Below, piece by piece: positions 6,644 to 63,191 of a DNA stretch of 64,000 nucleotides; the stretch's first letter is position 1; the number at the start of each line of letters is the position of its first letter. The stretch comes from an uncultured Candidatus Saccharibacteria bacterium (GTDB lineage Bacteria; Patescibacteriota; Minisyncoccia; Phycocordibacterales; Phycocordibacteraceae): contig CAZQGQ010000002.1 of NCBI GenBank assembly GCA_964593365.1, positions 85,671-149,670 of the forward strand, read 5' to 3'. The position numbers were made by a program, and so were the translations under genes. The notes beneath the pieces were generated by a model, which ran no database searches, was not told where the DNA came from, and saw nothing but the letters and a program-made list of their open reading frames with translations.

Positions 6644-6684
6644 AGTGTTTCTAGTATAAATAAAATATCGAGTCCGCGCCACTT

Positions 6685-6712
6685 TTGACGCTTGGGGGCG
6701 AGAGCGTATCAT
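6685..6712 (+). promoter_or_regulatory. Sigma70-like promoter TTGACG-N16-TATCAT, -10 located 6 nt before the ATG at 6719 (leaderless)
   Basis: Read directly from the sequence; this is the same -35/-10 architecture that recurs across the window. Confidence 0.45.
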
Positions 6713-6718
6713 TTATGA

Positions 6719-7324
6719 ATGCTTCCAGCGTTCAAGAAACTCTCAACCCCTAAGAAAATCCAAGACTTTCTGGACACCCTTCCCATAAACTACGAGAAGC
6801 AGGGTGAGACTTGCATGAGCCCTTCACATGTCCTCAAAGCAAAGAAGGCGCACTGCCTCGAAGGAGCACTGCTTGCAGCTGCCGCGCTCTGGGCGTACGG
6901 GGAAAGGCCGCTCCTCATGAACCTCAAGTCTGCCAACGGGGACGACGATCACGCAGTTGCCCTGTATCGCATTAATGGCTACTGGGGTGCCATCTCAAAG
7001 ACCAACCATTCATCTCTTCGCTTCCGGGATCCCATATACAAAACCGTCCGCGAGCTCGCTCTCTCCTATTTCCATGAATACTTTGTAAACAAGACAGGTG
7101 CTAAGACTTTGCGTGCGTATTCAGATCCCTTACGTCTCACCCAGTTTGGAAAAGACTGGGTGACAAGTGAGAAGAATCTCTGGGCCATAGCCCACGCCCT
7201 TCGAGATGCTAAGCACCATGCACTCGTACCTGCTACCAATAAAAGGCATATACGAGCTGCAGATAAGATCGAGCGGCGCGCTGGAACGATCATTGAGTGG
7301 AAAAAGAGCGATCCGCGCACCTAA
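6719..7324 (+). CDS. Hypothetical protein, probably a papain-like fold Cys/His enzyme (NAT/transglutaminase-like motif)
   Basis: 201 aa. KKAHCLEGALLAAAAL resembles the catalytic Cys context of arylamine N-acetyltransferases and transglutaminase-like proteases, and a DDDH motif lies downstream. Confidence 0.4.
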   Translation: MLPAFKKLSTPKKIQDFLDTLPINYEKQGETCMSPSHVLKAKKAHCLEGALLAAAALWAYGERPLLMNLKSANGDDDHAVALYRINGYWGAISKTNHSSLRFRDPIYKTVRELALSYFHEYFVNKTGAKTLRAYSDPLRLTQFGKDWVTSEKNLWAIAHALRDAKHHALVPATNKRHIRAADKIERRAGTIIEWKKSDPRT

Positions 7325-7341
7325 AAGTGCCTCGTGCTACC

Positions 7342-8226
7342 ATGGGGCATCGTATGAAGCGGAACACCCAACTAGCAGCCGCCCTAGGAGTACTCATCGT
7401 CATATTGTTTGGGGTTATCTCCTATCTCTACTACCAAAAGACTGTGGCGCTTACCGATACCCGCATTGCCCTTGAAGAGGCAACGACGACATCCGCAATG
7501 CTTCAGGAGAAGCTTCGGACAGAAGAAGCGGAAAGTGACGTTCTTGCGGACGCGCTTCAGGCCGAGAAAGATCGGAACGATGCGTTTGAAGGAAAGATCA
7601 GCGAGATCAGCGGCACTGTGGGCAAGCTCGATAAGCTCTCGAAGATGGATCCTGAGCTTTTGCAGAAATACTCTAAGGTCTACTTCCTCAACGAGAACTA
7701 TGCTCCTTCGGCCCTGGCTACGGTAGATGTTGGCTACCGGTTTAACGAAGAGAAGCTTGAGGAGGTGCATGCACAGATGCTCCCGTTTCTCACTGAGCTT
7801 CTTGAGGATGCAAAAGATGACGACGTTGAGCTTCTCGTCGCCTCTTCCTACCGGTCCTTCGGGCGGCAAGGGGGCCTTAAGGCAAGCTATACGGTCCGGT
7901 ACGGCTCAGGGGCAAACGCTTTCTCCGCCGAGCAAGGATACTCAGAGCACCAGCTCGGGACAGCCATCGATTTCACTACTAAAGACGTGGGAGGCAATTT
8001 CGTAGGGTTTGATGACAGCGAAGCATTTGAATGGCTCACGCATAACGCATATAAATATGGGTTCATACTTTCCTACCCTGAAGGAAACGCGTACTACCAG
8101 TACGAACCGTGGCACTGGCGCTTTGTTGGAGAAGATCTTGCCCGAGACCTGCGGAATGACGATAAGAATTTTTACGACCTGGACCAGCGAGAGATTGATC
8201 CGTACCTGATTGATTTCTTTGATTAA
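7342..8226 (+). CDS. D-alanyl-D-alanine carboxypeptidase, VanY / peptidase M15B family, N-terminal TM anchor
   Basis: M15B motifs SSYRS, QGYSEHQLGTAIDF and EPWHWR. Start chosen at MGHRMKRNT to avoid overlap with the upstream gene (track start 7297). Confidence 0.8.
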   Translation: MGHRMKRNTQLAAALGVLIVILFGVISYLYYQKTVALTDTRIALEEATTTSAMLQEKLRTEEAESDVLADALQAEKDRNDAFEGKISEISGTVGKLDKLSKMDPELLQKYSKVYFLNENYAPSALATVDVGYRFNEEKLEEVHAQMLPFLTELLEDAKDDDVELLVASSYRSFGRQGGLKASYTVRYGSGANAFSAEQGYSEHQLGTAIDFTTKDVGGNFVGFDDSEAFEWLTHNAYKYGFILSYPEGNAYYQYEPWHWRFVGEDLARDLRNDDKNFYDLDQREIDPYLIDFFD

Positions 8227-8234
8227 ATGATCAA

Positions 8235-8277
8235 GGGCGCCGGAGACATGAAGTTCTCCGACGCCCTCTTCTTCGTT
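8235..8277. terminator. Intrinsic terminator after the VanY-like gene (possibly bidirectional)
   Basis: Stem gggcgccggaga / tctccgacgccc with an 8-nt loop, followed by a U-rich tail tcttcttcgtt. Confidence 0.6.
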
Positions 8278-8305
8278 AAAGGTGGAACTAGTGCTTGCCT
8301 GCTGC

Positions 8306-8464: not shown

Positions 8465-8509
8465 GAGAATTCTCCCCTAACTGCAGGCGAACGCTACGCC
8501 CATTTGGAC

Positions 8510-8539
8510 GATACTAGCGGCATAGACGCTTGCGGTCAA
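8510..8539 (-). promoter_or_regulatory. Sigma70-like promoter TTGACC-N17-TAGTAT, 7 nt upstream of the ATG at 8503
   Basis: Consensus-like hexamers read on the minus strand. Confidence 0.5.
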
Positions 8540-8773: not shown

Positions 8774-8822
8774 CACTACCCTCCCGATGAGGCGAGCAAG
8801 GCGGATACACGCCCATATATTG

Positions 8823-8850
8823 ATTGTAGCTAAGGAGAGCTGCCGGTCAA
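8823..8850 (-). promoter_or_regulatory. Sigma70-like promoter TTGACC-N16-TACAAT for the 48-aa basic protein gene
   Basis: Read on the minus strand; it gives a 5' UTR of about 43 nt containing the GGGAGG SD. Confidence 0.5.
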
Positions 8851-17831: not shown

Positions 17832-17883
17832 TTCCCAATCCTAAGATCACTATGACGCGAGCGTCGAATGTATACTGGAGGTC

Positions 17884-19545
17884 ATGAACGCCCCGGAACT
17901 CAAGGAACATCTCGCATCCCTACTCCAGGGAGACGTTGAGGACGATGCTGCGACACTTAAGAAGTTTTCTCGCGACACCAGCGTCTTCGAGCGGATGCCC
18001 TCTCTTGTCGTCTACCCTAAAGATGCAAATGATGTTTCAAGCTTAGTGAAAGCAGTGCGAAAGGCCAAAGAAGACGGTGAAGATGTTTCTATCACCGCAC
18101 GCTCTGCAGGAACGGATATGACCGGAGGGCCGCTCACTCGCTCCATCGTTGCGGAGTTCATGCGCTACATGAATAAAGTGATCGAGGTTGGCGAAGGCTA
18201 CGCTGTTACAGAGCCTGGTGCGTTCTATCATGACTTCGAAGACGCGACGCTTGCCAAAGGCTATCTACTTCCCTCCTACCCTGCTTCCCGTTCACTCGCT
18301 GCAATGGGCGGCATCGTTAACAACAACTCGGGCGGTGAACGTACATTGAAATACGGCAAGACTGACCGCTACGTTGATGAGCTTGATGTCGTGCTTTCAG
18401 ACGGAACGCAGACAACCTTCAAAGCGCTCGGCCCTGACGAGCTCGCGAAGAAAAAGGAACAGCAGGATTTTGAAGGCGATATCTATCGCCGCATGAGCGC
18501 TCTCATCATCGAGAACCGAACCCAGATAGAAGCAGCACGTCCTCGCGTCTCGAAAAACTCAGCCGGGTATGCACTCTGGGACGTTTTTGATACGGATAAC
18601 GGAACCTTCAACCTCGCAAAGCTCATCACGGGAGCTCAAGGAACTCTGGCTCTTACGACCAAGATGAAGCTCTCCCTCATTAAGCCCAAAGGCCACCGCG
18701 CGATGCTCGTGGTCTTCGTCTCAGACGAGAAGGTTCTTCCTGAGGTGGTACGGCGTGTCTTGGCCCTCTCTCCCGAATCGTTTGAGTCTTATGACCATCA
18801 CACTTTTACGCTTGCACTTCGCTTCCTGCCGCAGATGCTCGGGCAGATGGGGCTGCTACGCGCCATACACCTAGGATGGTCCTTTATTCCCGAGATCTGG
18901 ATGGCACTAACCGGAGGCGTTCCGAAACTCATTCTCATGGCCGAGTTTGCAGAAGATACGATCCAAGAAGCGGATAAGAAAACCGTTGCAGCAAAAGAAG
19001 CACTCAAAGATCTACACCTTCCAACGAAAGTGGAGTGGAATGAGAAGTCATCTGAAAAATACTGGACGGTGCGCCGGGAAAGCTTCGCGCTCCTTCGAAA
19101 GAATCTGCATGGACTCTATGCAAGCCCGTTCATCGACGACTTTGTCGTTCCTCCGGATTCCTATCCTGAGTTTCTTCCAGAACTGAATGCGCTTCTCGAG
19201 CAATATAAGGACCGCTTCATTTACACGATCGCGGGGCACATTGGTAACGGGAATTTCCACATCATCCCGCTCATGAATCTCAATTCCCCCGAAGTGCGCC
19301 ATGTCATCATTGAGCTTGGGCCGAAAGTATACGAGCTTGTCCTTAAATATGGAGGGACGACGACCGGAGAGCATAATGACGGCATCATCCGAACGCCCTA
19401 CCTTCCGATGCTCTTTGGCGAGGAGATGGTTGCGCTCTTTGAAAAGACGAAGCGGATCTTTGATCCCATGAATATCTTCAATCCAGGCAAAAAAGTGGGC
19501 GGCACCTTCGCCGATATTGAGCGGGACATGCTCACGAGGGCGTAA
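17884..19545 (+). CDS. FAD-linked oxidase (GlcD / D-lactate dehydrogenase-like, FAD_binding_4 + C-terminal domain)
   Basis: 553 aa; FAD-binding PCMH-type N-terminal domain and a C-terminal HIGNGNFH motif. A -10 TGTATACT lies 7 nt before the ATG. Confidence 0.8.
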   Translation: MNAPELKEHLASLLQGDVEDDAATLKKFSRDTSVFERMPSLVVYPKDANDVSSLVKAVRKAKEDGEDVSITARSAGTDMTGGPLTRSIVAEFMRYMNKVIEVGEGYAVTEPGAFYHDFEDATLAKGYLLPSYPASRSLAAMGGIVNNNSGGERTLKYGKTDRYVDELDVVLSDGTQTTFKALGPDELAKKKEQQDFEGDIYRRMSALIIENRTQIEAARPRVSKNSAGYALWDVFDTDNGTFNLAKLITGAQGTLALTTKMKLSLIKPKGHRAMLVVFVSDEKVLPEVVRRVLALSPESFESYDHHTFTLALRFLPQMLGQMGLLRAIHLGWSFIPEIWMALTGGVPKLILMAEFAEDTIQEADKKTVAAKEALKDLHLPTKVEWNEKSSEKYWTVRRESFALLRKNLHGLYASPFIDDFVVPPDSYPEFLPELNALLEQYKDRFIYTIAGHIGNGNFHIIPLMNLNSPEVRHVIIELGPKVYELVLKYGGTTTGEHNDGIIRTPYLPMLFGEEMVALFEKTKRIFDPMNIFNPGKKVGGTFADIERDMLTRA

Positions 19546-20105: not shown

Positions 20106-20642
20106 CTAAAAATCAACGTCGCCTGAGACTTCGGGCAATACGACCTGCAGCCTCTCTAGGATCCGTCTTACTTTAGCTGCCTGAGGCTTGTCTTGTAGCC
20201 AGCTAATCAAGCGGGCACGCATCTGGAATCCATCAGTCGTAAAAAGTCCGCTGAATGAAAGATCAGCTGGGTCTTCCATGAAATGCTCAGCGCGCATCGT
20301 ATCCATAGTCGGATCTGCAGCTGTTGCAGCATTAATAGCATCGAGAAACTCTTGATAGTCCATCCGAGCCGCGGAAACTATCTTCAGATAGATTGCCTGG
20401 TCCGTATCCCGCAGTTCATCCAGAGCATGTGTCATGAGATACGTCAGTCGCTGAAACTCGACGAAGAAGCTCTCCTGTTCTTCTCGGCCTGGACTATCAG
20501 CCTCGCGCATGAGCCCCATGAGCTCCTGCAGCATCGCAAGTTCGCCTTCTTCCTCTTCGGTCAGCGTACCGAGATCCTCAACGATCTTTTCTGGGGATAC
20601 TGGCTCTGTGCTGGTCGGAGGTCCACCTTCGTTTTTAGCCAT
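20106..20642 (-). CDS. Hypothetical acidic protein
   Basis: 178 aa, E/D-rich and helical, with no recognisable motif. Confidence 0.45.
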   Translation of the reverse strand: MAKNEGGPPTSTEPVSPEKIVEDLGTLTEEEEGELAMLQELMGLMREADSPGREEQESFFVEFQRLTYLMTHALDELRDTDQAIYLKIVSAARMDYQEFLDAINAATAADPTMDTMRAEHFMEDPADLSFSGLFTTDGFQMRARLISWLQDKPQAAKVRRILERLQVVLPEVSGDVDF

Positions 20643-20664
20643 AGTTACATTATATCTTCTAGAT

Positions 20665-20985
20665 TCACTCCACGACTCCTATCGGATAAACATGAGTCGC
20701 TGGCTCTTCGTACGGATGCGTAGATTTAATCGCCTTGAGCACGTCCGTGAGCTTATCCTCTGCACACACCGTCTCGATGCGTTCTTCCTCAACCGCTTCG
20801 AGCTTACCCACTTCGCCTATCGTTGGGTGAGCACCTTCTTCAGGCTTGAAACGACCCGTTCCCTTCAGAGTAAAGCTGCAATGGGAGTAGTTACCTATTT
20901 TGCCTGCGCCCGCTTGCCCGATTGCCTCGCGCACTTTGTCTGCGTGCGTTTCTGGCACATATATAACGATCTTATATCTCTTCAT
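20665..20985 (-). CDS. Small PII-like fold protein (CutA/Nif3-insert-like), function unknown
   Basis: 106 aa. The C-terminal HPYEEPATHVYPI resembles the CutA1/Nif3 family C-terminus; the family assignment is tentative. Confidence 0.4.
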   Translation of the reverse strand: MKRYKIVIYVPETHADKVREAIGQAGAGKIGNYSHCSFTLKGTGRFKPEEGAHPTIGEVGKLEAVEEERIETVCAEDKLTDVLKAIKSTHPYEEPATHVYPIGVVE

Positions 20986-21009
20986 ACTAGAGAGTGTACC
21001 TTACGCGTA

Positions 21010-22257
21010 TTAGCTCTTATGCCTTGGACGGTGAGAGCTTCGCACCCGCACAGCCACCGGATGCTTATGCTCACGTATCACAAACTGATAGGCAATCCAG
21101 GTAACAAGTATGAATCCTGCGCCGATAGCGATGGTCCACGAGGGGCCAATAAGGGTATAGGCGATACCTGCAATAAAGGGACCTACCGCCCATCCGAGAT
21201 CCTGGAACACGTTAATGATTCCAGACACGAGCCCGTCGCTATCATGCTCCTTATCGAGGGAGTGGAGCCACGACCAGAGCGTAATGCTTGCCATCTCCTC
21301 GCCCGTCGTTGCGAGAAAGCCAAACAGAAGGAAGAGCCATGAGAAATGGAAGCCAAGGAAGAGGCCTGAGACTGAGAAGAGTAGGATGCCGAAGAAGACG
21401 AGGGTCCGCTTGTTCCACCGGTCTGCGAGCGATCCGAGGAAAAATCCCAGAACAACAACCGCAAAATCGAAGATGCCAAGCCCGAGAGAAAGCAGGCCTG
21501 CGTCTGCCTGATGAACGATGACGATCGGCACGACAAACCAGATGATGCCGTAGAAGACGGATGAACTAAACCCAAGCAATAGAAGCATCCCACTTGCGGG
21601 GTTGAGCTTTGCCAGGGCCTTAAAGGTATCAGGAAGGAACTTTCGCCGTACGAAATAGTGATGTTGCGGATGCTTTTTCTCGACATGCACCGAGGTATGA
21701 TCCTTTGGAGAAAGACGTATAGCGACAAGCGCCAGCAGGAGCGCGCAGACCATCCAGAGCGCTATGAATTGGGGTGAGAGAAGGAGGGCGATACCAAGGA
21801 CAGCGCTTATGAGAACGACTCCCAATGAGCCGAACACGTCGCGAAAGGAGATGAACTTCCCCGCATGTGCCTTAGGGGCATGCGAGAGAATATAGGCATT
21901 AACTCCTGGACCGAAAAATACCCATCCAAAAATAGAGATGCCAAGACTTATAAGATAGGTAGTGAGCGAGAATTCAAGTACCAGAATTCCAGCTGCCAGT
22001 ACGAACAGAATAGTGCCGAGCGTCAGGAGCTTACGGTAGCCGTAACGGTCAAGAAGATGCCCTACTGGTACATCAAGGATGAGCTGCGCAAGCGCGCACC
22101 CTCCCATAAGAGTTCCTACTACCCAAAGCGGGAGAAGCTTCTCTCCAAGAGGCGCAACCACAGAGTAATGGAGTCCTGCCCCAAACTTGAACAGGATGAG
22201 AAATATCCAGAACGGAAGGAAGGCGAGAAAGATGCGGTAGATATTCGGAGCAGTCAC
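21010..22257 (-). CDS. MFS transporter
   Basis: 415 aa with 12 predicted TM helices and an MFS-type loop DRYGYRK. Confidence 0.8.
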   Translation of the reverse strand: MTAPNIYRIFLAFLPFWIFLILFKFGAGLHYSVVAPLGEKLLPLWVVGTLMGGCALAQLILDVPVGHLLDRYGYRKLLTLGTILFVLAAGILVLEFSLTTYLISLGISIFGWVFFGPGVNAYILSHAPKAHAGKFISFRDVFGSLGVVLISAVLGIALLLSPQFIALWMVCALLLALVAIRLSPKDHTSVHVEKKHPQHHYFVRRKFLPDTFKALAKLNPASGMLLLLGFSSSVFYGIIWFVVPIVIVHQADAGLLSLGLGIFDFAVVVLGFFLGSLADRWNKRTLVFFGILLFSVSGLFLGFHFSWLFLLFGFLATTGEEMASITLWSWLHSLDKEHDSDGLVSGIINVFQDLGWAVGPFIAGIAYTLIGPSWTIAIGAGFILVTWIAYQFVIREHKHPVAVRVRSSHRPRHKS

Positions 22258-22306
22258 CCAAGGAGTATAACTTGTACCGGCCTGGTAGGGACTCGGACCT
22301 CTGCTG

Positions 22307-22774: not shown

Positions 22775-22790
22775 AGTATATCGTACTTGA

Positions 22791-24348: not shown

Positions 24349-24376
24349 GAAAAATCCGCTCCTCTGCTACACTCTT

Positions 24377-26702: not shown

Positions 26703-26723
26703 TACCCATGCTATCCTTTTTGC

Positions 26724-30204: not shown

Positions 30205-30215
30205 AGGAGCAGTGT

Positions 30216-41443: not shown

Positions 41444-41447
41444 ATCT

Positions 41448-42282: not shown

Positions 42283-42290
42283 AGTTTCGG

Positions 42291-42319
42291 GAGAATAGCA
42301 GAATTAGAGCCCAGGGTCA
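42291..42319 (-). promoter_or_regulatory. Sigma70-like promoter TTGACC-N17-TATTCT, 8 nt upstream of the rpsP ATG (leaderless)
   Basis: Read on the minus strand. Confidence 0.45.
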
Positions 42320-42511
42320 ACTATAAAAAGTTGTGCGACGGACCAGAGGTGAACCGGGTCCGCCGCACGGTAGTACGAAGCTCAACCGCTTCGCCTGGTA
42401 GTCACAGGGCTCCGGCTAAAGGGCTACCTGCGGCCTTCGTAACCAGGGGAATCTTTCGAAGGCAGCGCAATCGTAGCATAACGATACTAATCTGCTAGAG
42501 TATTCAATAAC

Positions 42512-46848: not shown

Positions 46849-49056
46849 TTATTTTGCTACCTGCATTGCCTCTTCGAACTTGACTGAGAGGAGCTTGCTG
46901 ATGCCGTCGCCTCCCATAGTGACGCCGTACAAAATACCTGCACGACCCATGGTCTCGCGGTTGTGCGTGATAACGACGAGCTGCGAGCGCTTGGAGAGGC
47001 TATCGATCATGTCTCCGTAGCGGCGCGAGTTAGCTTCGTCGAGAGCCGCGTCGGTCTCATCAAGGATCAAAAATGGCGGCGGATTCACCTGGCTCATCGC
47101 GAAGATGAGCGCGATTGAGGTAAGTGCGCGCTCGCCTCCTGAAAGCTGCATAAGAGACTGCAGCCGTTTCTTAGGGAGATTCACCTGCACCTCAAGGCCA
47201 GGGCGTACCTCTCGCTGTACTTCTTCTGGAGCTTCGTCTTCTTCGTCCTCTTCAGCAGGAGCGATATCCTCAAGCACGAGCTTTGCTCCTCCTCCCCCGA
47301 ACATGAGCGCGAAGAACTCGGTAAACGATTCGTTCACCTTCGCCAGTCCTTCCGCAAAGTTCTTCGCAAGCTCCTCATCAAGATCGCGAATCAGCTCCTC
47401 GAGGCCGATGACTGAGTTGGCAAGATCTTGAAGCTCGGTAGCAAGGAACTCCTCGCGGTTCTTGGTTTCCATATATTCGCTTCGCACTTCTTCTCCGGTG
47501 CCTCCCGCCTCTTCAAGACGAATCTTCAGGCGCTCAAGGGTTCGCTTGCGGTCTTCTTGCACTTTGCGGTCTTCCTCGGGAAGTTCAGACAGCGGCTCGT
47601 ATGAAAAGGCTTGGCTTCCGGCAAGCGCGAGTACTTCTGCTCGCTCGCGTTCAAGCTCCTCGCCAAGGTAATTTAATTCTTTGATTCTTGCTTCAATGCG
47701 CGCGAGTGAAGATTCGAGCTTTGCGCGCGTTTCTGCAAGCTCAAGTATTCGGTGCTGATTCTCACGTCCGGTCTCCTCATGCGCCGTGCGCTCCTCGCGT
47801 GCCTTAGCAAGCACCTTCCGCGCTTCCTCTACGCGAAGCGCTATTGCGCGATCTTTATCTGAAAGCGCCTCTCGCTCTTTCTCAAACTTCTGCACGGCCT
47901 GCTCCTCATCTGCAAGATAGTCGCTCTCGCTTGCCCCATAGCGGTCAAAGAAGGCCATGACCGCAGAGCGAAGCGCTCGAAGGGCTGCAGAGAATGCGGA
48001 GATATCTGCTGTTTCAGACAGTGCGGTCTGTCGCTCTACTTCGTCTTTGAGGACCTTCAGGTCTTCGCGCGGGACTTTCACATACGGCTCGCGGGCTAGG
48101 AGTGCACTGCGACGCTTGGCCTCAGACAACGCTCCTTCAATACGACCCATGTCTCGCGAGAGATCGGACTGTTCTGCGATTGCACGATCAAGCTCGCGCT
48201 CTGCCTGGCGCACAGCTTCAATGCGCTTCATTCCTTCGCTCTCTCCCGTCGTCTCTCGCTCAAACACTGAAATTTCTTGCTCGGCAACAGCAAGGCGCGC
48301 TGACGTGTCGCGTTCCTCAGCTTCAGTCTTTACCCGCTCTACCGCAAGGTATTTTTCTTCTATTGCAAAGTATTCGCGCGCGGAGCCTGCAAGGTCTCGC
48401 CCGAGCTCTTCTGCGCGCTCCAACTTCTCTACCTGCTTCTGCAAGAACTTCAGGTGCGGAGAAAGTTCCCGACGAAGGGCTTCTACTTCCCGTACGTTGT
48501 CGCGAGTCTTATCGAGCTTTCGGATCGCTTCCTGCTTCTTGAATTCAAAGACCTTAAGGCCGAGCGCGTCCTCGAGCATGGCTCGGCGCTCACGCGGAGC
48601 TGAAAGCAAGATACGATCCGCTTCTCCTTGAGAAATGATGTGGTGACCGGTCTCGCCGATGTTTGCGGAAGCGAGGAGTTCCTGGATATCGCGGAGGCGA
48701 ACCTTGGAACCGTTGATGGAGTACTCGCTTGCTCCGTCTCGGAATACCGCACGCTCTATCTGTACCTCGTCAAAATCGATCTTAGGGAAGATGCGCTTGG
48801 TGTTATCAAAGATGATCACTACCGATGCACGGTTCGCGCGAGGGTTCGTATGTGAGCCCGCAAAAATAAGATCCTCGCTTCGCTTGCCGCGCATGCTTTT
48901 CATGGATTGTTCGCCAAGCGCGAAGCGGAAGGCTTCTGCGACGTTTGATTTACCTGAACCGTTAGGGCCCACAATGGCAGTAGCTGCCGACGAGAAATCG
49001 AGCACGGTTTTCCGTGCGAACGATTTGAACCCGACGACTTCAAGCCGCTTCAGCAT
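46849..49056 (-). CDS. smc: SMC-family ATPase, short form (approx. 736 aa, no recognisable hinge domain)
   Basis: SMC N-terminal head MLKRLEVVGFKSF...GPNGSGKSN, a long coiled coil, and a C-terminal signature LSGGERALTSIALIFA plus Walker B FLILDETDAALD. The track ORF extends to 49491, but the true start is the internal Met at 49056, with a -10 TATAAT 7 nt upstream. Confidence 0.8.
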   Translation of the reverse strand: MLKRLEVVGFKSFARKTVLDFSSAATAIVGPNGSGKSNVAEAFRFALGEQSMKSMRGKRSEDLIFAGSHTNPRANRASVVIIFDNTKRIFPKIDFDEVQIERAVFRDGASEYSINGSKVRLRDIQELLASANIGETGHHIISQGEADRILLSAPRERRAMLEDALGLKVFEFKKQEAIRKLDKTRDNVREVEALRRELSPHLKFLQKQVEKLERAEELGRDLAGSAREYFAIEEKYLAVERVKTEAEERDTSARLAVAEQEISVFERETTGESEGMKRIEAVRQAERELDRAIAEQSDLSRDMGRIEGALSEAKRRSALLAREPYVKVPREDLKVLKDEVERQTALSETADISAFSAALRALRSAVMAFFDRYGASESDYLADEEQAVQKFEKEREALSDKDRAIALRVEEARKVLAKAREERTAHEETGRENQHRILELAETRAKLESSLARIEARIKELNYLGEELERERAEVLALAGSQAFSYEPLSELPEEDRKVQEDRKRTLERLKIRLEEAGGTGEEVRSEYMETKNREEFLATELQDLANSVIGLEELIRDLDEELAKNFAEGLAKVNESFTEFFALMFGGGGAKLVLEDIAPAEEDEEDEAPEEVQREVRPGLEVQVNLPKKRLQSLMQLSGGERALTSIALIFAMSQVNPPPFLILDETDAALDEANSRRYGDMIDSLSKRSQLVVITHNRETMGRAGILYGVTMGGDGISKLLSVKFEEAMQVAK

Positions 49057-49071
49057 TGAGGCAATTATACC

Positions 49072-51661: not shown

Positions 51662-51997
51662 CTATGCTCCGCCGCCAAATCCCGAGCGACTCTTAGCGCG
51701 ATCTTGCACCATGCGGCCAACGAGTCCTGGCTTCTTTACCTTCTCCTTCTCTTCCTTCTCGACATGGACATGGCCTTCTGCAGGTCCCATCTTATCGGCC
51801 TTCGTGCTTTCCTTTACCTTCTTGACCTTCTTAGGAGCGATGACCTTCCCGCGGTACATACCAGTAGACTCATCGATGCGATGAGGCAGGCGAAGAGTGC
51901 CGCTGTCCTTATCCTTCACGAGCTTCATGTTCTTCAAAGCGTGATGGCTTCGGCGGTTCTTGGTATGGGAACTGGTGTGGCGCATTCGTACAGACAT
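51662..51997 (-). CDS. rpmF: 50S ribosomal protein L32 with approx. 55-aa Lys/Glu-rich C-terminal extension
   Basis: The N-terminus MSVRMRHTSSHTKNRRSHHAL is the bL32 signature. The extension is rich in K/E/V. Confidence 0.8.
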   Translation of the reverse strand: MSVRMRHTSSHTKNRRSHHALKNMKLVKDKDSGTLRLPHRIDESTGMYRGKVIAPKKVKKVKESTKADKMGPAEGHVHVEKEEKEKVKKPGLVGRMVQDRAKSRSGFGGGA

Positions 51998-52025
51998 AGG
52001 CGCTACCTTACCTTAAAGTCCCCAA

Positions 52026-52622: not shown

Positions 52623-52821
52623 CTTCTTTAGGAACGATCGTAATCTTTTCTACTCCCTTGGGAGCGCGCTTTACGGTTATCTCGAACCCGGTTCCCTCTC
52701 TTAGAAAATTAAACAGGGCGGCGCCAACCGTGGTCACCGTCTCAAACGAGCGGCGCTTACGCTCAGCCTCGTCTCTTTGTCGGCGTCTGGCGTCCAGGGA
52801 CTCGTCTACGAATTCGCTCAT
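52588..52821 (-). CDS. Hypothetical small protein
   Basis: 77 aa with a -10 TATAGT 6 nt upstream of the ATG. It overlaps the rnhB 5' end. Confidence 0.3.
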   Translation of the reverse strand: MSEFVDESLDARRRQRDEAERKRRSFETVTTVGAALFNFLREGTGFEITVKRAPKGVEKITIVPKEDGEKNEADTRG

Positions 52822-52893
52822 AAAATAACTATAGCATCGCGGTAAAATCCGGGATGCTACGCGTTTGGAAGGCCTTTGTTGTATCCTTCAGGT

Positions 52894-55800
52894 ATGGCCG
52901 GCCGGTTCATCCATTTACATACCCACAGCCACTACAGCTTCCTTCAGGCCCTCCCGAAGGTTAATGAGCTTGTGGACAAGACGAAAGAGGAAGGAATGGA
53001 CGCCGTAGCGCTCACCGACTCCGGCAACCTCCATGGCGCGATCGAGTTTTATAAAGCCGCGACTAAGGCTGGGATAAAGCCGATCATCGGCGTTGACGCG
53101 TATGTTGCTCCCCGCTCACGCTTTGATAAGGAGCGCCAGGAAGATTCACATCGAACACGCATCGTTCTTTTAGCTGAGAACATGGTGGGCTACAAGAACC
53201 TCCTGAAGCTTGTCACCAAATCATTTACCGAAGGATTCAACGACCGTCCGCGCATGGACCGCGAGCTATTGAAAGAACACTCGGAAGGATTGATCGCTAT
53301 CATGCCGTCCTTTGCAGGCGATGTCCCTCTCTTGCTTCGCGCAGGCGACGCCGCGGGAGCAGCAGGTGCGCTCGCCGAATACCAGAGCATCTTCGGCAAA
53401 GACAATCTCTATCTTGAAATCTCCCACCACCCGAAGGTCGAAGGACATAAGCGAGTGATGGATGAGGTGAAGAAGCTTGCGGGAGACTCTGGCGCAAAGC
53501 TCGTCGCGCAGCATGATGTGTATTACCTCTCTCCTGACGACCGCGAAGCGCGTGAAGTGATGAAGCGCATCCAGAACGCGCACCAGGCACCAGGCTACAG
53601 CGCAGAGGAAGACTTCTCCTTTGTCTCAGAGAAAGACATGCGCAAGTGGTTTGCGGACGTTCCGGAGGCAGTGGATGAGAGCGGGCGCATCGCTGATCGC
53701 TGCAACATTGAGATGACGCTTGGGCAGTGGGTCTTTCCTGAGATCCCGACGGACGAGGGCAAGACGCACGACCAGATGCTTCGCGAGCGAGCGTATGCCG
53801 GGCTTACGGCGCGCGCCATGGAAAAGTCTGATGACGTTGAGGTCCGTATCGAGTACGAGCTCAAGATCATCGGCGATAAGGGCTTTGCTCCTTATTTCCT
53901 CGCCGTTTCCGACCTCCTTACCTTTGCAAAGCAAAACGGCATCCTGACCACGACTCGCGGATCTGCAGGAGGCTCTTTGATCTCGTACCTGGTCGGCATC
54001 ACGAACGTCGACCCAATGTTCTACAAGCTTCCCTTCGAGCGCTTCTTGAACCCCGAGCGTCCGAAAGCTCCCGACATCGACATGGACTTTGCTGACGATC
54101 GGAGAAACGAGGTGATCGCCTACGCCAAGCAAAAGTATGGCGAGGACCGCGTAGCGCAGATCGGAACATTCGGCACCATGCTCGCACGAGCCGCTGTTCG
54201 AGACGTTGCGAGAGCGTTGGGCCATTCCTACGGAACGGGCGACCGGATCGCAAAACTGATCCCGCTTGGCTCTCAAGGATTCCCGATGACAATCGCGCGT
54301 GCCATGGAAATGGAAGATGATTTGAAAGCGCTCTATCGAGAGGACGAAGACGTGCGCGAAATCATTGATCTTGCAAAGCGAATCGAGGGCTGCGTGCGGC
54401 ATGTCGGCGTGCACGCCGCAGGCGTCGTTGTCGCTCCTTCACCACTCACTGATTGGACGCCAGTGCAGTTTGACCCGAAGGGCGAAGGCATTCTTATTAC
54501 GCAGTACGACATGTATTCGATCACGGACGAATACGGAGGCGTGGGTCTCCTGAAGTTCGACTTCCTGGGAATCAAGAACCTCGCCATTCTTGCAGCCGCC
54601 GTTGACCGGGTCGCGGAAACCAAAGGCATATACATAGACATCGAGACGGTGCCCCTTGATGACGACAAGACTTTCGCGATGCTCGCTCGAGGCGAGACAG
54701 AAGGCACCTTCCAGCTAAACGGTTCAGGCATGACCCGCTACCTCAAGGAACTTCGTCCCACCACCATCCACGACATCAACGCCATGGTGGCGCTCTATCG
54801 TCCGGGACCGATGGAAACGATCCCGCAGTACATCGAGCGAAAGCGAAACCCTAAGCTCATCCGCTTCATTGATGAGCGCATGAAGGAATACCTCGATACG
54901 TCCTACGGCGTCATCGTGTATCAAGACGACGTGCTTTTGACCGCAGTGAACCTTGCCGGCTACTCCTGGCTTGAAGCTGACACGCTTCGAAAAGCCATGG
55001 GTAAGAAGATTCCGGAAATCATGATGGCCGAGAAGGACAAGCTCATCAAAGGTTTTGTTGAGTACGGCAAGCTCTCTGCCGATAAGGCAGAAGCCATTTG
55101 GAAACTGATTGAACCGTTTGCAGCCTACGGCTTTGGTAAGGCTCACGCCGCTTCCTACGGCAAGGTGGCCTACCAGACCGCCTACCTGAAAGCCAACTAC
55201 CCGGTTGAATACATGGCAGCGGTACTCTCTGCTGATGCGGGAGACGTTGAGAAGATTTCTATCTCTGTTGCTGAGTGCGATCGCCTTAAGATTCCCGTAC
55301 TCCCACCAGACATTAATGAGAGCCGATCAACCTTCACCGTAGTGGATGAAGGCAAGGCGATTCGCTTCGGCCTCTCCTCGATCAAGAACTTCGGCGAGGG
55401 CATCTCGGAAGCCATTATGACCGAGCGCGAGGCGAACGGCGCCTTCAAGGACCTCGCCGATTTCCTCTCCCGAATCGACTCCAGGAACTTGAATAAGAAA
55501 TCTCTTGAATCCTTGATCCGCTGCGGAGCGCTCGATCGCTTCGGGGAACGCGGGAATCTGCTTCATAACGTCGAAGTGCTTCTCACCTTCCATCGCGAGG
55601 CAAGCGCTCCAGCCGAGCAGGACTCCTTGTTTGCAGCAGCCGCGCCAACGCTCGCCTTCCCACAAGAAGGAGCGCCTCTCTCAATGATCCAAAAGCTTGC
55701 GTCTGAGAAAGAGCTTCTTGGCATTTATGTCTCCGGACACCCGCTCGATGCTCACGCAGATAAGACAAGCAAGGCTTCTGTTTCCATTGGACAGATAAAG

Positions 55801-56395: not shown

Positions 56396-56423
56396 TTGAC
56401 AAGAAAAAAGCCCCTCCTATACT
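56396..56423 (+). promoter_or_regulatory. Sigma70-like promoter TTGACA-N16-TATACT driving the thrS leader
   Basis: Consensus -35 and a near-consensus -10. The -10 ends 7 nt before the leader-peptide ATG. Confidence 0.6.
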
Positions 56424-56430
56424 GGAACCT

Positions 56431-56466
56431 ATGCAGCTTCAGACAACTACCACCACCGCTCTCTAG
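56431..56466 (+). CDS. thrS leader peptide MQLQTTTTTAL (five consecutive Thr codons), leaderless
   Basis: ATG CAG CTT CAG ACA ACT ACC ACC ACC GCT CTC TAG, read directly. The Thr codons overlap hairpin segment 1 of the attenuator. Confidence 0.6.
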   Translation: MQLQTTTTTAL

Positions 56467-56530
56467 CGCTTGCGGCGTGGTAGTTACTCCTTTCGAAACC
56501 TACCCCGCCCAAGCGGGGATTTTTATTTAA
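56446..56530 (+). promoter_or_regulatory. Transcription attenuator with alternative hairpins 1:2, 2:3 and 3:4, ending in an intrinsic terminator (approx. 56503..56529) 22 nt before thrS
   Basis: Segments 1 (56446-59) and 2 (56472-84) pair over 12 bp. Segment 2 pairs with segment 3 (56500-08) over 9 bp with a 3-nt bulge. Segments 3 and 4 form the terminator ccccgc-ccaa-gcgggg followed by atttttattt. Confidence 0.6.
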
Positions 56531-56551
56531 CGACGTATAATAGCCATCACC

Positions 56552-58303
56552 ATGAACCCAGCATCTAAGGAACTCGAAGCAAAACGCCACACGCTCGCCC
56601 ACCTGCTTGCCGCTGCAGTTATGAAAATGCATCCGGACGCAAAGCGCACCATCGGTCCGGCTATCGACGACGGCTTCTATTTCGACTTCGAGTTTTCAAG
56701 CCCGCTGTCTGAGAAAGACTTCCCCAAGCTTGAGAAGGAAATGCGTCGCCTCCTTCCTTCCTGGAAATCCTTTGAGAAGTTCGACCTCTCCCCTGAACAG
56801 GCAAAGGAGGAGTACCCGGGCAACCCCTACAAGCATGAGCTTATCGACGAGTTTTCAAAAGATGGCGGTACCCTCTCCTTCTACAAATCCGGTGAGTACT
56901 GGGATCTCTGCCGCGGCGGCCACGCCGAGAATCCAGCCAAGGAAATAGCTTCTGACTCATTCAAGCTTGACCGGGTCGCAGGAGCGTATTGGCGAGGCGA
57001 TGAGAAGAACACGATGCTCACCCGTATCTATGCGCTTGCCTTTGATACCAAGGAAGAGCTCGATGCATATATCGCACAACGAGAAGAAGCCAAGAAGCGC
57101 GATCACCGCGAGCTTGGGGAGAAACTCGATCTCTTCCACTTTGACGAGGCCATCGGAAAAGGGCTTCCTATCTGGCTTCCCAAAGGCAACATCATCAAGG
57201 AAGAACTAGAGCGGTGGGCAAAAGATACTGAATCAGAATGGGGCTACGACCGTGTGACAACTCCTATCATCACCAAGGAGGACCTCTTTTACACCTCTGG
57301 TCACCTTCCCCTCTACAAAGAAAGTATGTACGCGCCGATACAGATTGAGGAAGAGACTTACTACATCAAGCCGATGAACTGTCCCTTCCATCACAAGGCG
57401 TATGCCGCTCGACCAAAGAGCTACCGCGATCTTCCTGTGCGCTACGCAGAATATGGATGGTGCCACCGTTTTGAGGATTCCGGCAGCCTGTTCGGCCTTA
57501 TGCGGGTTCGAGGAATGCAGATGAACGATGCGCACATTTATATCCAGAAAGAGAATGCCGTTGAAGAGTTTGTGCGGGTGATTCAATTGCATGAGTACTA
57601 CTACAAAACCCTCGGTATTAAGAACTACGAGATGGAACTCGCACTTCGAGACCCTTCTAAGATGGACAAATACCATGGAGACGAGGAGGACTGGAAGGAT
57701 GCCGAACGGATGACTATCGAAGCTATGGAAAAATCCGGCGTTCCATTCAAGGTGGTCAACGAAGGCGCCGCATTCTACGGACCAAAAATGGACTTCCAAA
57801 TCTACTCTTCTATTGGACGTTCCTTTACTGCCTCGACCAACCAATTGGACTTGTTCATGGGCAAGCGTTTCGGGCTTGAGTATGTAGACGCAGACGGTAC
57901 TCGCAAGACCCCCGCGATCATCCACCGAGCCCCCCTTGGCACTCACGAACGATTTATTGGATTCCTTATTGAGCACTATGGAGGCGCCTTCCCGCTTTGG
58001 CTTGCACCGGTCCAAACGCGCATTCTCCCGGTCTCTGAAAAGCACGCCGCCTACGGTACCGAGCTCTTTACCGCCCTCAAGGCAGCCGGTATTCGCGTAG
58101 AGCTTGATAGCGCAAACGACTCTCTGGGCAAGCGCATACGAAACGCGAAGATGGAAAAGGTTCCCTACCTGCTTGTCGTTGGCGATGCGGAGATAGAGGG
58201 AAAAACGGTCACTGCAGAAAGCAGGGACGGCGGAAAGCTCGAGCCTATGAGCATCGAGGCGTTTATCGAGCGAGCCAAGGAAGAGATCAAGACTCGCGCC
58301 TAA
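56552..58303 (+). CDS. thrS: Threonyl-tRNA synthetase (no N-terminal TGS domain)
   Basis: Starts in the second additional domain (HTLAHLLAAAV). Class II catalytic core and a C-terminal anticodon-binding domain are present. A TATAAT lies 10 nt upstream of the ATG. Confidence 0.9.
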   Translation: MNPASKELEAKRHTLAHLLAAAVMKMHPDAKRTIGPAIDDGFYFDFEFSSPLSEKDFPKLEKEMRRLLPSWKSFEKFDLSPEQAKEEYPGNPYKHELIDEFSKDGGTLSFYKSGEYWDLCRGGHAENPAKEIASDSFKLDRVAGAYWRGDEKNTMLTRIYALAFDTKEELDAYIAQREEAKKRDHRELGEKLDLFHFDEAIGKGLPIWLPKGNIIKEELERWAKDTESEWGYDRVTTPIITKEDLFYTSGHLPLYKESMYAPIQIEEETYYIKPMNCPFHHKAYAARPKSYRDLPVRYAEYGWCHRFEDSGSLFGLMRVRGMQMNDAHIYIQKENAVEEFVRVIQLHEYYYKTLGIKNYEMELALRDPSKMDKYHGDEEDWKDAERMTIEAMEKSGVPFKVVNEGAAFYGPKMDFQIYSSIGRSFTASTNQLDLFMGKRFGLEYVDADGTRKTPAIIHRAPLGTHERFIGFLIEHYGGAFPLWLAPVQTRILPVSEKHAAYGTELFTALKAAGIRVELDSANDSLGKRIRNAKMEKVPYLLVVGDAEIEGKTVTAESRDGGKLEPMSIEAFIERAKEEIKTRA

Positions 58304-61262: not shown

Positions 61263-61309
61263 ATTTGTAAGGTTAGTTATTAGGGTATGCCACTTGGAAT
61301 GATACAGGA

Positions 61310-62008
61310 CTATGTCCCGTTTCCAAGGGCCTCGGTTGAATAAAGCTTCGCAGTCACGATGAAGCGGTCTGACTTTGCCCCGAAGGTGTCGCAGGTAGCG
61401 AGCGTGAGCTTCGAGCCTGAGACATCGAGCGGAATCTCGCCGCTTTCTGTGTTTGACTGCTCCACCGTTTCTACGGCGTAGGTATAGGCCTTATCTTTGC
61501 CATACACCGTGATCAGGTCCCCTTCCTTGAGGTTCTGGATCCCGTTGAAGGCCTTATAGGCCTGGTTATGGACCACTGGCAGGTAGCTTGAGTGCCCGAA
61601 GATAAGCACGTTTCCTTCAGCCCCGAGCGTTCCGGTTCCTGGGTAGCGGACAGCCCCCGTAAGCAAGGCTTGGTCGAGCGCGCTGATGCGGGTGGTGTTT
61701 GGGTTTGAGACGTTAGCCTCGACGCCTATCGCAGGGATCTTGATACGAACTGGGAGCTCCCCTTCTGCAACGAGCGCGACTGCTGGAGTCTCAGGTTCGG
61801 CAACTATTGGTGCGTTAGTTGGCATCTGACTAAAAGCAGCAAAGGATGACGGGATCATGCCGATACCAGAGAGCGTCTGGAACGAAAGCAAAAAGATAAG
61901 TGCAAAAAAGAAAAGGAAGCTCCACTTATGGGCGAGCACTTCCTCTACAGGGGTTTTTGCAGGCGCTGCGTGATGCGCGTTACTCATAGAAATACTATAC
62001 CACAGCAA
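61310..62008 (-). CDS. Sortase-family transpeptidase
   Basis: N-terminal TM helix. Catalytic His in VLIFGHS, catalytic Cys in LTLATCDT, and a conserved Arg (RFIVTAKL). Confidence 0.8.
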   Translation of the reverse strand: MLWYSISMSNAHHAAPAKTPVEEVLAHKWSFLFFFALIFLLSFQTLSGIGMIPSSFAAFSQMPTNAPIVAEPETPAVALVAEGELPVRIKIPAIGVEANVSNPNTTRISALDQALLTGAVRYPGTGTLGAEGNVLIFGHSSYLPVVHNQAYKAFNGIQNLKEGDLITVYGKDKAYTYAVETVEQSNTESGEIPLDVSGSKLTLATCDTFGAKSDRFIVTAKLYSTEALGNGT

Positions 62009-62080
62009 ATATGCTTCTTGTCAACCCCCGTTTCCCCTTTGTCTTGACAAAAGTATTGGGTATGGGGTAGATTACCGGGA

Positions 62081-63067
62081 ATGGAAACACCTTCATCCCA
62101 CGAGCAGCACACCCCGAGCCGGAAGGCTGCGGTTAACGGCCTCGCCGTTGTTGGCGTCATCGCGCTTGTCGTTGGCGGTATCTTGCTTGTCGTCTACGCA
62201 GCCCGCTACATTCCTGAGACCCTCTCTCGCCTCGCGGGTGCCGTGTACCTCTCCCCTGAAGAGACCGTAAACCCTGAAGATGAAGAAACCCCGGTAGAGA
62301 CACCTGAAACCCCAGAAACACCGGTGACTCCAACCACACCAGGTACAACATCTACACCCGCAGTTAATCCTCCTGTTAAGACAACTCCAGGTGGAGTCAT
62401 TACGGTTCCTCGCGCCCTCACCGGCTCCCCTGACCTTCAGCCTGAGATTCTTGCGCTTGGGTACCTCCAGAACAATTCGGCAAACTCGTTTGTCACGGCA
62501 AACGATCTTTCGGCAAACGATCGTCCTGCGATCCGCTTCCGTGTCCGCAACGTTGGAACAAACGCAGTGAACTACTGGCAAGTGCGCGTGGAGTATCCTA
62601 CCGAAGACAGCCAGGATTCATACGTCATCACCTCTCGCGACCTTCTTATGCCAGGCGGCTATAAGGACTTTACATTTGGATTTGATAATCCTGACGAAGG
62701 AAGCGACCGCCTCTTTGTCGTTACTGCAGATCCAGGTAATGGCGTTCGTGAAAGCAACGAAGGCAACAATCGCGACTCTGCATCTATCGACATCGGCCGC
62801 ACAAGTGGCTCAAACAACAACTCAAGCCGACTCGCTTGCGATCTTAGTGTCTCTCCAAGCCGCATTGACGAGGGAGAGCGAGCTACTCTTCGCTGGGAAG
62901 CTGATGGCGCTGATGATGCACGAATCAATGAGGGCATCGGCTCAGTCGACGAGGATGAAGGCTCTGAACGTGTCTCCCCTCGCGAAGACACCACGTATCG
63001 CCTGACGGTTGAGAATGACGACGATACTGAGACCTGTTCAGTAACGCTTCGCGTTGACGAAGACTAA
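62081..63067 (+). CDS. Membrane-anchored surface protein with a CARDB-like domain and a C-terminal acidic Cys-bracketed domain (paralogous to that in 58635..60008)
   Basis: N-terminal signal anchor, an ETPETPETP linker, and a CARDB-like region (RFRVRNVGTNAVNYWQVRV). The C-terminal domain runs from CDLSVSPSRIDEGERATLRWE to TCSVTLRVDED. Confidence 0.6.
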   Translation: METPSSHEQHTPSRKAAVNGLAVVGVIALVVGGILLVVYAARYIPETLSRLAGAVYLSPEETVNPEDEETPVETPETPETPVTPTTPGTTSTPAVNPPVKTTPGGVITVPRALTGSPDLQPEILALGYLQNNSANSFVTANDLSANDRPAIRFRVRNVGTNAVNYWQVRVEYPTEDSQDSYVITSRDLLMPGGYKDFTFGFDNPDEGSDRLFVVTADPGNGVRESNEGNNRDSASIDIGRTSGSNNNSSRLACDLSVSPSRIDEGERATLRWEADGADDARINEGIGSVDEDEGSERVSPREDTTYRLTVENDDDTETCSVTLRVDED

Positions 63068-63085
63068 GAGACATTTCTTACGAAG

Positions 63086-63114
63086 AGCGCCCGGTTTATG
63101 CCGGGCGTTTTTCT
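63086..63114 (+). terminator. Intrinsic terminator
   Basis: gcgcccgg-tttatg-ccgggcg followed by ttttt. Confidence 0.7.
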
Positions 63115-63142
63115 TTGACTTTAAACATTAAAATGTTATACT
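63115..63142 (+). promoter_or_regulatory. Sigma70-like promoter TTGACT-N16-TATACT
   Basis: It begins immediately after the terminator U-tract. The -10 lies 7 nt before a leaderless ATG that opens a 7-codon mini-ORF (MPQLSRG). Confidence 0.5.
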
Positions 63143-63191
63143 AATATCAATGCCGCAGTTGTCACGCGGTTAGAGTTCGGGAGCGTTTGTT

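Follow-up and report, generated by a model that had tools for sequence, protein, structure and literature searches.

How are start codons selected in a genome where the -10 hexamer of the promoter lies almost against the start codon? The question is raised by a 64,000-nucleotide stretch of contig CAZQGQ010000002.1 (assembly GCA_964593365.1, forward-strand positions 85,671 to 149,670), hereafter the window. A first-pass annotation of it had listed twelve genes with a TATAAT-like hexamer 6 to 11 nt before the ATG, and had proposed that translation initiation here is dominated by leaderless messenger RNAs (mRNAs). Here we report a computational analysis of this arrangement in the window and in related genomes. 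The default expression unit is probably an extended -10 promoter of the sigma-70 type (TGnTAnAnT, with the -35 element weak or absent) set directly against the start codon, which would give rise to leaderless or near-leaderless mRNAs free of a Shine-Dalgarno (SD) sequence.

Spacing of the hexamer before start codons

The spacing (d) between hexamer and start codon was scored with a start rule blind to the motif, namely the first ATG of each long non-overlapping open reading frame (ORF). For 48 window ORFs, TANNNT was found at d = 6 in 10 cases, at d = 7 in 5, at d = 8 in 4, at d = 9 in 3 and at d = 10 in 4; the spacings from 0 to 5 nt held one in total, and the background, taken from 374 internal in-frame ATGs and from all 1922 ATGs, was 0.7-1% per position. 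With the upstream 40 nt of each gene shuffled 300 times, the 22 of 44 window genes carrying TANNNT at 6-10 nt compare with 4.5 ± 2.0 in the shuffles (z = 8.7), and offset controls on the same 44 genes gave 1 (d = 0-4), 6 (d = 11-15), 2 (d = 16-20) and, at a fourth offset, again 2. Across 80 relatives from the GTDB collection the motif was present in 288 of 939 genes, as against 113.6 ± 9.6 in shuffles (z = 18). The short -10/ATG spacing that had been pointed out is thus enriched over shuffled controls in the window and in its relatives alike. The identical pipeline applied to 100 kb of Escherichia coli gave the motif at 3%, and an SD peak stood out clearly in 42% of genes. On the megaplasmid of Deinococcus radiodurans it returned 2 of 28, a figure that concerns plasmid genes in 67% GC DNA, where the first-ATG rule fails.

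These controls bear on the simplest alternative, that AT-rich intergenic DNA or stop codons of the upstream frame yield TANNNT by composition and that favourable cases had been chosen by the reader. Upstream regions are indeed somewhat AT-richer, and upstream TAA or TAG codons could seed hexamers at d = 6 or 9; yet the composition-preserving shuffles fall far below the observed count, the neighbouring offsets are nearly empty, the E. coli control is low, and at its third position the hexamer mostly has T or C, unlike the A or G of a stop codon. Shuffles, offsets, E. coli control and hexamer composition together refute this explanation, and we attach a negligible probability to it.

When starts were curated, TANNNT stood 6-10 nt before the start in about 32 of about 53 protein genes, in about 20 of them at 6-7 nt (Table 1). 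The twelve listed cases were all found again on re-reading and proved to be an undercount. Small corrections apply to four of them: rpsP has the TTGACC and TATTCT elements described, but at a spacing of 9 nt instead of 8; ORFs 8503 and 52821, correct in hexamer and spacing, both lie on the minus strand; and ORFs 8503 and 63150 have just 8 and 7 codons.

Promoter features and conservation of the hexamer

A hexamer-anchored pool of 324 sites from the window and 80 related genomes was selected on T-A-N-N-N-T alone. In this pool the extended -10 positions hold T in 44-55% and G in 51-57% of sites, against backgrounds of 28% and 22%, position 4 of the hexamer is A in 58-63%, and a weak TTG is seen about 17-18 nt upstream of the hexamer. 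Because the selection used only TANNNT, the T/G, A and TTG features point independently to a sigma-70 promoter. Eleven protein genes of the window have the TGn of an extended -10, and a -35 element of the TTGAC type is found 16-19 nt upstream of the hexamer at gene 6719, rpsP, the CARDB gene and the sortase gene; such an element also precedes the thrS leader ORF and the mini-ORFs 8503, 8816 and 63150. The most frequent spacing, 6 nt, equals the canonical distance between a -10 box and the transcription start site (TSS), which would place +1 on the A of the ATG. Of 172 genes with the -10 at 6-7 nt, 153 (89%) start with ATG, 10 with GTG and 9 with TTG, a preference that fits translation from a 5'-terminal AUG.

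The frequency of the motif also varies with the gap to the upstream gene, from 7-16% of genes at gaps of -4, -1 or 0-5 nt to 30-34% at gaps of 6-100 nt. A cruder comparison of divergent with same-strand neighbours gave no discrimination; the finer gap analysis did.

Footprints were read from alignments in which ortholog N-termini had been anchored by tblastn. The rpsP module (TTGAC-N17-TGnTAnnnT-N7-10-ATG) is kept in about 40 species, with an aligned ATG offset of 0 in essentially all, and that of dnaG (TTGTCAA-N17-TAGAAT/TACACT-N7-9-ATG) in about 30. RNase R keeps TGcTAGAGT-N8-10-ATG in relatives, and UvrD keeps ggTACACT-N6/7-ATG in the related loci L010, L025, L029, L030 and L034. Spacers and flanks around these four boxes have otherwise diverged, and the conserved footprints overall span 40-70 species. 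Orthologs of rpoB share a conserved leader with neither box nor SD.

The pattern was replicated outside the window. In 347 genes of closer GTDB relatives, TANNNT occurs at 12.4% (d = 6) and 10.7% (d = 7), and in 416 genes of more distant relatives at 10.6%, 7.7% and 7.0% (d = 6, 7 and 8), each over a background of 1-3%; by the crude first-ATG rule the clade-wide fraction is 27-36%. In 20 kb of same-contig sequence flanking the window, boxes lie at 6-7 nt before pheS, a kinase gene, a DUF1801 gene, def and murA, and at 15-17 nt, corresponding to short leaders, before gyrB, a glycosyltransferase gene, tsf and one more. Twenty metagenome loci with a thrS at least 60% identical and a different gene neighbourhood carry the motif at 36% of 5' ATGs vs 9% of internal ones. 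The thrS loci at greater distance are mixed, and some of them plainly use SD, such as L132 (SD 0.35 vs 0.013); among them high SD use pairs with little -10 motif and vice versa, and their SD signal means that the pipeline detects SD sequences where they are present.

From these features we infer the TSSs and the ribosome pathway as follows. RNA polymerase with RpoD (30258-31517) would initiate about 7 nt after the hexamer, so that +1 would fall on the A of the ATG at spacings of 6-7 nt and 1-4 nt upstream of it at 8-10 nt. The resulting mRNA would have no room for a ribosome-binding site and would enter the leaderless pathway, in which the ribosome with initiator tRNA recognises the 5'-terminal AUG, and SD pairing would play no detectable part. 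Some promoterless genes are tightly coupled to the gene before them, through ATGA overlaps or gaps of 0-15 nt, implying termination-reinitiation; the remaining promoterless genes would have real leaders and another SD-independent route.

One lineage departs from this layout at rpsP. In Adlerbacteria-like loci (L052, L060-L063, L065) the -10 box lies about 36 nt upstream of the gene, and the leader holds a conserved GC hairpin with a T-rich tract behind it. It looks as if rpsP in this lineage had changed from leaderless to leadered, possibly with attenuation.

Probable initiation without Shine-Dalgarno pairing and its alternatives

SD use was assessed by counting GGAG or GAGG at a distance of 5-10 nt upstream of candidate starts, both in the 5' zone of long ORFs and at internal positions. 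The 5' and internal frequencies were 0.029 and 0.053 in the window, 0.045 and 0.048 in one set of relatives and 0.048 and 0.052 in the other, compared with 0.144 and 0.011 in E. coli (13-fold). Internal SD-like words are avoided in E. coli and are not avoided in the window or its relatives, which also speaks against a working anti-SD. Scanned without bias, GGAGG, GGGAG and AGGAG were no more frequent before ORF-opening starts than control 5-mers. The statement that only a minority of genes show a classical SD holds, since SD 4-mers at 4-12 nt precede 6 of 41 genes (15%) vs 11.5% of all ATGs. In a paper on CPR ribosomes, only 48% of the 16S genes of Parcubacteria had a recognisable anti-SD (CCUCCU), a pattern tied to a subgroup that overlaps the lineages lacking uL1 and whose functional meaning was called unclear (PMC9297842); a link with the present genome is plausible. 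Spacing, promoter features, ATG preference, footprints and an SD frequency at background all lend support to the proposed dominance of leaderless initiation, so far as sequence evidence can speak to it.

A functional argument comes from the leader of thrS, which by its layout is a classical leader-peptide attenuator (Table 1). Its 11-codon ORF encodes MQLQTTTTTAL*, with five Thr codons in a run, and the segments that follow can form the alternative hairpins 1:2, 2:3 and 3:4. In the unconstrained fold (-31.0 kcal/mol) the Thr codons pair with a downstream segment (1:2) and the terminator is formed; when the first 24-36 nt are masked, mimicking a ribosome stalled on the Thr codons, the 2:3 pairing takes up the 5' arm of the terminator, which disappears. 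Such a device works only if the mini-ORF is translated, and this ORF leaves no space for a 5' untranslated region. The attenuator is absent before thrS of the nearest relatives (L094-L096, 74-75% identity), and several of the nearest relatives have TGcTAnnnT-N6-ATG directly before thrS. The more distant loci L104, L105, L119 and L120 have T-box-like thrS leaders (GGTGGAACCGCG, followed by a terminator).

Several observations weigh against a leaderless default. Some 12-13 cases, about a third, have a spacing of 8-10 nt and are not strictly leaderless; these probably carry leaders of 1-4 nt. Well-placed GGGAG or GGGAGG words precede the leadered ORFs at 2523 (an outer-membrane protein gene), 63192, 8464 and 8773; hidden SD use at these four ORFs was considered and rejected, the 5-mers not being enriched over controls. 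No 16S gene was found in the window, its flanks or any of 170 loci, either by an exact pattern search of the loci or by BLAST with E. coli 16S and 23S against the window, 80 GTDB loci, two same-contig flanks and 80 metagenome loci. A generic two-hexamer promoter scan of the window gave 5 sites against 12.0 ± 3.9 in shuffles, which can be explained only if -35 boxes are dispensable, as at sites of the extended -10 type. Genes situated 6-15 nt behind their upstream neighbour still have TANNNT in 26-34% of cases, implying promoters embedded in upstream coding DNA. Finally, the TATAAT 10 nt before thrS sits downstream of that gene's own attenuator terminator, and L119 mirrors this with a TATAAT 9 nt before the ATG and downstream of its T-box terminator; the thrS box may be an additional promoter, or else suggest a role of the box in translation as well.

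The last two points are also what would be expected if TANNNT were an AT-rich, SD-independent ribosome-binding or standby signal in ordinary 5' untranslated regions, similar to that of "group B" genomes in Bacteroidota, with the transcripts leadered throughout. Leadered genes without an SD exist in the window as well: rpoB, the ribonucleotide reductase genes, the RRM protein gene, the hypothetical gene hyp215 (whose leader forms a hairpin), the KH gene and thrS when read through from upstream. Such genes would need some form of non-SD internal initiation in any case. A ribosome-binding signal would, however, have no use for a match to the sigma-70 -10 consensus accompanied by an extended -10 TG and a TTG(AC) 16-18 nt upstream, nor does it account for a spacing mode equal to the -10-to-TSS distance, for the depletion of the motif at tightly coupled genes, or for its absence from conserved leadered genes such as rpoB. 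We consider this explanation very unlikely and retain the promoter abutting the start codon, to which the leadered genes add the need for a second SD-independent route. Our guess is that unstructured, A/C-rich leaders together with protein bS1 provide it.

A different objection accepts the boxes as real promoters and holds that the leaderless share is much overestimated, the first ATGs being wrong or the transcripts, as at 8503, 8816 and 63150, having leaders or not coding for protein. Three promoter-abutting ATGs do open ORFs of just 7-25 codons, and a third of the cases have the longer spacings noted above. Gene callers also disagree on starts. Two near-identical metagenome contigs, L001 and L002, with the same sequence as the window at 31.5-52.3 kb, carry automatic calls that differ for SMC (735 vs 829 aa), rpoB (1060 vs 1071), RNase R (664 vs 648), glutamate dehydrogenase (409 vs 416) and L32 (88 vs 111). 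In conserved proteins, on the other hand, the box-adjacent ATG aligns with residue 1 of orthologs from up to 50 species (offset 0 in rpsP) and matches the Pfam starts (SMC_N position 1, L32p position 6, PHP 7 residues in), and ATG is strongly preferred at box-adjacent starts. An overestimate on this scale is therefore unlikely in our judgement. For SMC and L32 the call with the box-adjacent ATG is the one that agrees with the Pfam profile start, and the SMC ATG at 49056 is also one of the two Joint Genome Institute calls and opens a canonical N-terminus (Table 1). These two genes bear out the remark that the pattern matters for gene calling. The GTG at 22257 of the MFS transporter would be a leaderless-type start, being the sole start codon upstream of the Pfam domain. 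The TACTAT of rpoD itself, 10 nt from its ATG, is an ambiguous box.

For the mini-ORFs the objection carries more weight, and 8503 and 63150 are more likely just the points where transcripts with leaders or without coding function begin. The 63150 site more likely opens a 42-nt leader ahead of a membrane-protein ORF at ATG 63192, and the 8503 site probably opens a structured transcript of about 270 nt with a basic ORF of 52 aa.

Table 1. Arrangement of -10 hexamers and start codons in the window (positions are those of the window; N followed by a number gives the spacer in nt)
Feature	Arrangement	Positions	Strand	Remark
Glucose/sorbosone dehydrogenase-like gene	TATCAT-N6-ATG 3883	3881..3895	-	
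GH18	TATACT-N9-ATG 6643	6641..6658	-	signal-peptide-like N-terminus MTLIARSLSLVFVLA; divergent from gene 6719
Gene 6719 (transglutaminase-like, 6719-7324)	TTGACG-N16-TATCAT-N6-ATG 6719	6685..6721	+	
Mini-ORF 8503	TTGACC-N17-TAGTAT-N7-ATG 8503	8501..8539	-	8 codons
Mini-ORF 8816	TTGACC-N16-TACAAT-N6-ATG 8816	8814..8850	-	paralogous to 8503 unit; shared 5' end AUGGGCGU
FAD-linked oxidase	TATACT-N7-ATG 17884	17871..17886	+	
Hypothetical protein, 178 aa	TATAAT-N6-ATG 20642	20640..20654	-	
P-II-like protein	TACACT-N7-ATG 20985	20983..20998	-	
MFS transporter	TATACT-N6-GTG 22257	22255..22269	-	
DUF1360 / methyltransferase	TATACT-N6-ATG 22768 (-) / TATCGT-N6-ATG 22791 (+)	22766..22793	- / +	divergent, back-to-back
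hisS	TGcTACACT-N6-ATG 24380	24365..24382	+	
DsbA-like thioredoxin	TGcTATCCT-N6-ATG 26724	26709..26726	+	layout matched in orthologs L007, L008
UvrD/PD-(D/E)XK helicase	TGtTACACT-N6-ATG 30204	30202..30219	-	immediately after hairpin and T-run
rpoD	TACTAT-N10-ATG 31517	30258..31533	-	sigma-70 regions 1.1, 1.2, 2, 3, 4
dnaG	TACAAT-N7-ATG 33212	33210..33225	-	
rpsP	TTGACC-N17-TGcTATTCT-N9-ATG 42282	42280..42320	-	
RNase R	TGcTAGAGT-N10-GTG 42512	42493..42514	+	
Glutamate dehydrogenase	TATACT-N9-ATG 46553	46551..46568	-	
SMC	TATAAT-N7-ATG 49056	49054..49069	-	start 145 codons inside long ORF; N-terminus MLKRLEVVGFKSF
rpmF (L32)	TAAGGT-N7-ATG 51997	51995..52010	-	Pfam profile aligned from residue 6
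ORF 52821 (77 aa)	TGcTATAGT-N6-ATG 52821	52819..52836	-	overlaps rnhB start
dnaE	TATCCT-N6-ATG 52894	52882..52896	+	PHP domain begins 7 residues in
thrS attenuator	TTGACA-N16-TATACT-N7-ATG 56431; terminator CCCCGC-CCAA-GCGGGG and U-run	56396..56535	+	
thrS proper	TATAAT-N10-ATG 56552	56536..56554	+	
Sortase / CARDB-domain protein	TTGACA...TGgTATAGT-N6-ATG 61987 (-) / TTGACA-N18-TAGATT-N7-ATG 62081 (+)	61985..62083	- / +	divergent
Mini-ORF 63150	TTGACT-N16-TGtTATACT-N7-ATG 63150	63115..63194	+	7 codons

Four divergent gene pairs have back-to-back promoter/start modules (22766-22793, 61985-62083, 6641-6721 and 17790-17886). In the DUF1360/methyltransferase pair the -10 boxes on opposite strands overlap by 2 nt and the ATGs are 22 nt apart.

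The mini-ORFs 8503 and 8816 lie in an ORF-poor gap at 8227-8908 on the minus strand, which holds two tandem paralogous units of about 270 nt. Their promoters are strong and have the form TTGACC-N16/17-TACAAT or TAGTAT, and the predicted transcripts begin with AUGGGCGU, carry GGGAGG or GGGGAG 5-7 nt before very basic ORFs of 48 aa (ATG 8773) and 52 aa (TTG 8464), and end in a terminator hairpin of 12-14 bp; the fold z-scores are -4.1 and -4.8. The units have no Pfam or Rfam match, and an E-value scan of 8200-9900 gave chance hits only. Nearby, the hypothetical gene at 9517 has, at 9517-9579 on the minus strand, a near-consensus promoter, TTGACA-N17-TGcTAGTAT, and a 33-nt leader in which a GC hairpin with a T-run (9526-9541) has the look of an attenuator or riboswitch-type terminator, with no Rfam match.

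A repeat is present upstream of SMC on the minus strand (49082-49127 and 49576-49621). Its two copies share a core identical at 20 of 20 positions, ATACGGGCGCGCGTCAACAC, and have the inverted-repeat form GACGCGCGC-N12-GCGCGCGTC. The SMC promoter directly follows one copy and a second TATACT box the other, and the repeat could be an operator or a terminator.

Lineage, significance and comparison with known systems

The window has a GC content of 54%, and Pfam scans of its long ORFs describe a compact gene set rich in information-processing functions. An identical sequence is present on a 646-kb metagenome contig of the Joint Genome Institute. The families recognised include GH18, VanY, a hybrid histidine kinase, ribonucleotide reductase, an ABC-2 exporter, an FAD oxidase, an RRM protein, hisS, DsbA, UvrD, rpoD, dnaG, rpoC, rpoB, trmD, a KH protein, rpsP, RNase R, glutamate dehydrogenase, SMC, RNase III, a NusB-NUDIX fusion, L32, RNase HII, dnaE, thrS and a sortase. 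Rfam at the gathering threshold and ARAGORN gave zero matches over the whole window. RpoC is 75-81% identical to proteins of metagenome-assembled genomes (MAGs) labelled Candidatus Paceibacterota, Kaiserbacteria or Parcubacteria, and the best 80 RpoC-matching loci in the GTDB genome collection all (80 of 80) belong to the Candidate Phyla Radiation (CPR). By this homology the window is assigned to the CPR (Patescibacteria), class Paceibacteria (Parcubacteria), and is related to Kaiserbacteria. The expectation that the leaderless pattern would constrain the lineage failed: it would have implied Actinobacteria or Deinococcus, whereas the RpoC homologs are those of CPR bacteria.

Some features of the gene content are unusual. 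The gene order at 30258-42282 (minus strand) is odd, running rpsP, KH, a 128-aa ORF, trmD, rpoB, rpoC, dnaG and rpoD; there is no rplKAJL cluster before rpoB in the window, and trmD is found upstream of rpoB instead. RpoB (1060 aa) and RpoC (1246 aa) are short, and NusB is fused to a NUDIX domain (50686-51585, minus strand). The gene at 1801-2523 (minus strand) matches the outer-membrane beta-barrel family PF13505 (E = 7.6e-16) and has a well-spaced GGGGAG before its ATG, which is rare among window genes. CPR bacteria are usually described as lacking an outer membrane; this gene may have been acquired horizontally.

The wider reading is that a large clade within the CPR (Paceibacteria/Parcubacteria) gave up SD pairing in favour of an archaeon-like, mostly monocistronic leaderless default, with a single extended -10 promoter for each gene set against the AUG, that extends even to leader peptides, as the counterpart of the loss of the anti-SD and perhaps of uL1. 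We hold the chances for and against this to be about even. CPR bacteria represent a large share of bacterial diversity, are almost entirely uncultured and have ribosomes known as odd, and a leaderless default would offer a functional explanation of why many Parcubacteria have lost the anti-SD tail. In practical terms, start calls in CPR MAGs are unreliable and can be corrected by a rule of a -10 box at 6-7 nt, and the inference of operons and promoters in the CPR should start from the assumption that many genes form units of their own, their promoters lying within the preceding gene.

TANNNT at 6-8 nt from gene starts is the signature of the leaderless "group C" genomes (PMC6028130, PMC3160421, PMC12340547), a class to which GeneMarkS-2 assigned 90% of Actinobacteria, 97% of Deinococcus-Thermus and some Mycoplasma (PMC6028130, 10.1101/2022.07.25.500264). 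TA-led genes had been noted earlier by Zheng et al. in 2011 (PMC3160421), and in Mycobacterium and Deinococcus the signature has been validated with mapped TSSs and reporter constructs (PMC3898074, PMC12340547). The window resembles group C in having a Pribnow box 6-8 nt before gene starts, a dispensable -35 and a preference for ATG (PMC6028130, PMC3160421, PMC12340547, PMC3898074), and in that 25-50% or more of transcripts are predicted to be leaderless. It differs in three respects. The remaining genes of group C genomes carry an SD and their 16S keeps the anti-SD, whereas SD sequences are at background here; CPR Paceibacteria (54% GC, genomes of about 1 Mb) are not among the reported lineages; and the fraction of about 50-60% of window genes, and of 27-36% clade-wide by the crude rule, is at or above the roughly 30% quoted as the highest phylum average.

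Other systems share parts of the arrangement. The archaeal "group D" (haloarchaea, Sulfolobus) is likewise mostly leaderless, with marginal SD use and many genes transcribed singly, but its TATA box lies about 26 nt upstream and is read by TBP and TFB, in contrast to a sigma-70 extended -10 at 6-7 nt. From the Bacteroidota-like group B the window differs in that its motif follows the -10 consensus, comes with TG and -35 elements and is depleted at coupled genes. The attenuators of the E. coli thr, his, trp and pheST operons resemble the thrS leader in their run of regulatory codons, mutually exclusive hairpins and U-run terminator; here the device would control thrS instead of a biosynthetic operon, and its leader peptide has neither 5' untranslated region nor SD. 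The Parcubacteria without anti-SD and uL1 described by Tsurumaki et al. in 2022 (PMC9297842) belong to the same broad lineage, and SD use is absent here, but that study did not cover mRNA starts or promoters. A literature search on leaderless transcripts, SD and anti-SD in CPR, Patescibacteria and Parcubacteria, incomplete in its coverage, found only this paper and none describing the present regime. The mechanism is thus a known one, that of group C leaderless genes; what is new is the lineage and the lack of SD use in the remaining genes, which fits the anti-SD loss reported for some Parcubacteria.

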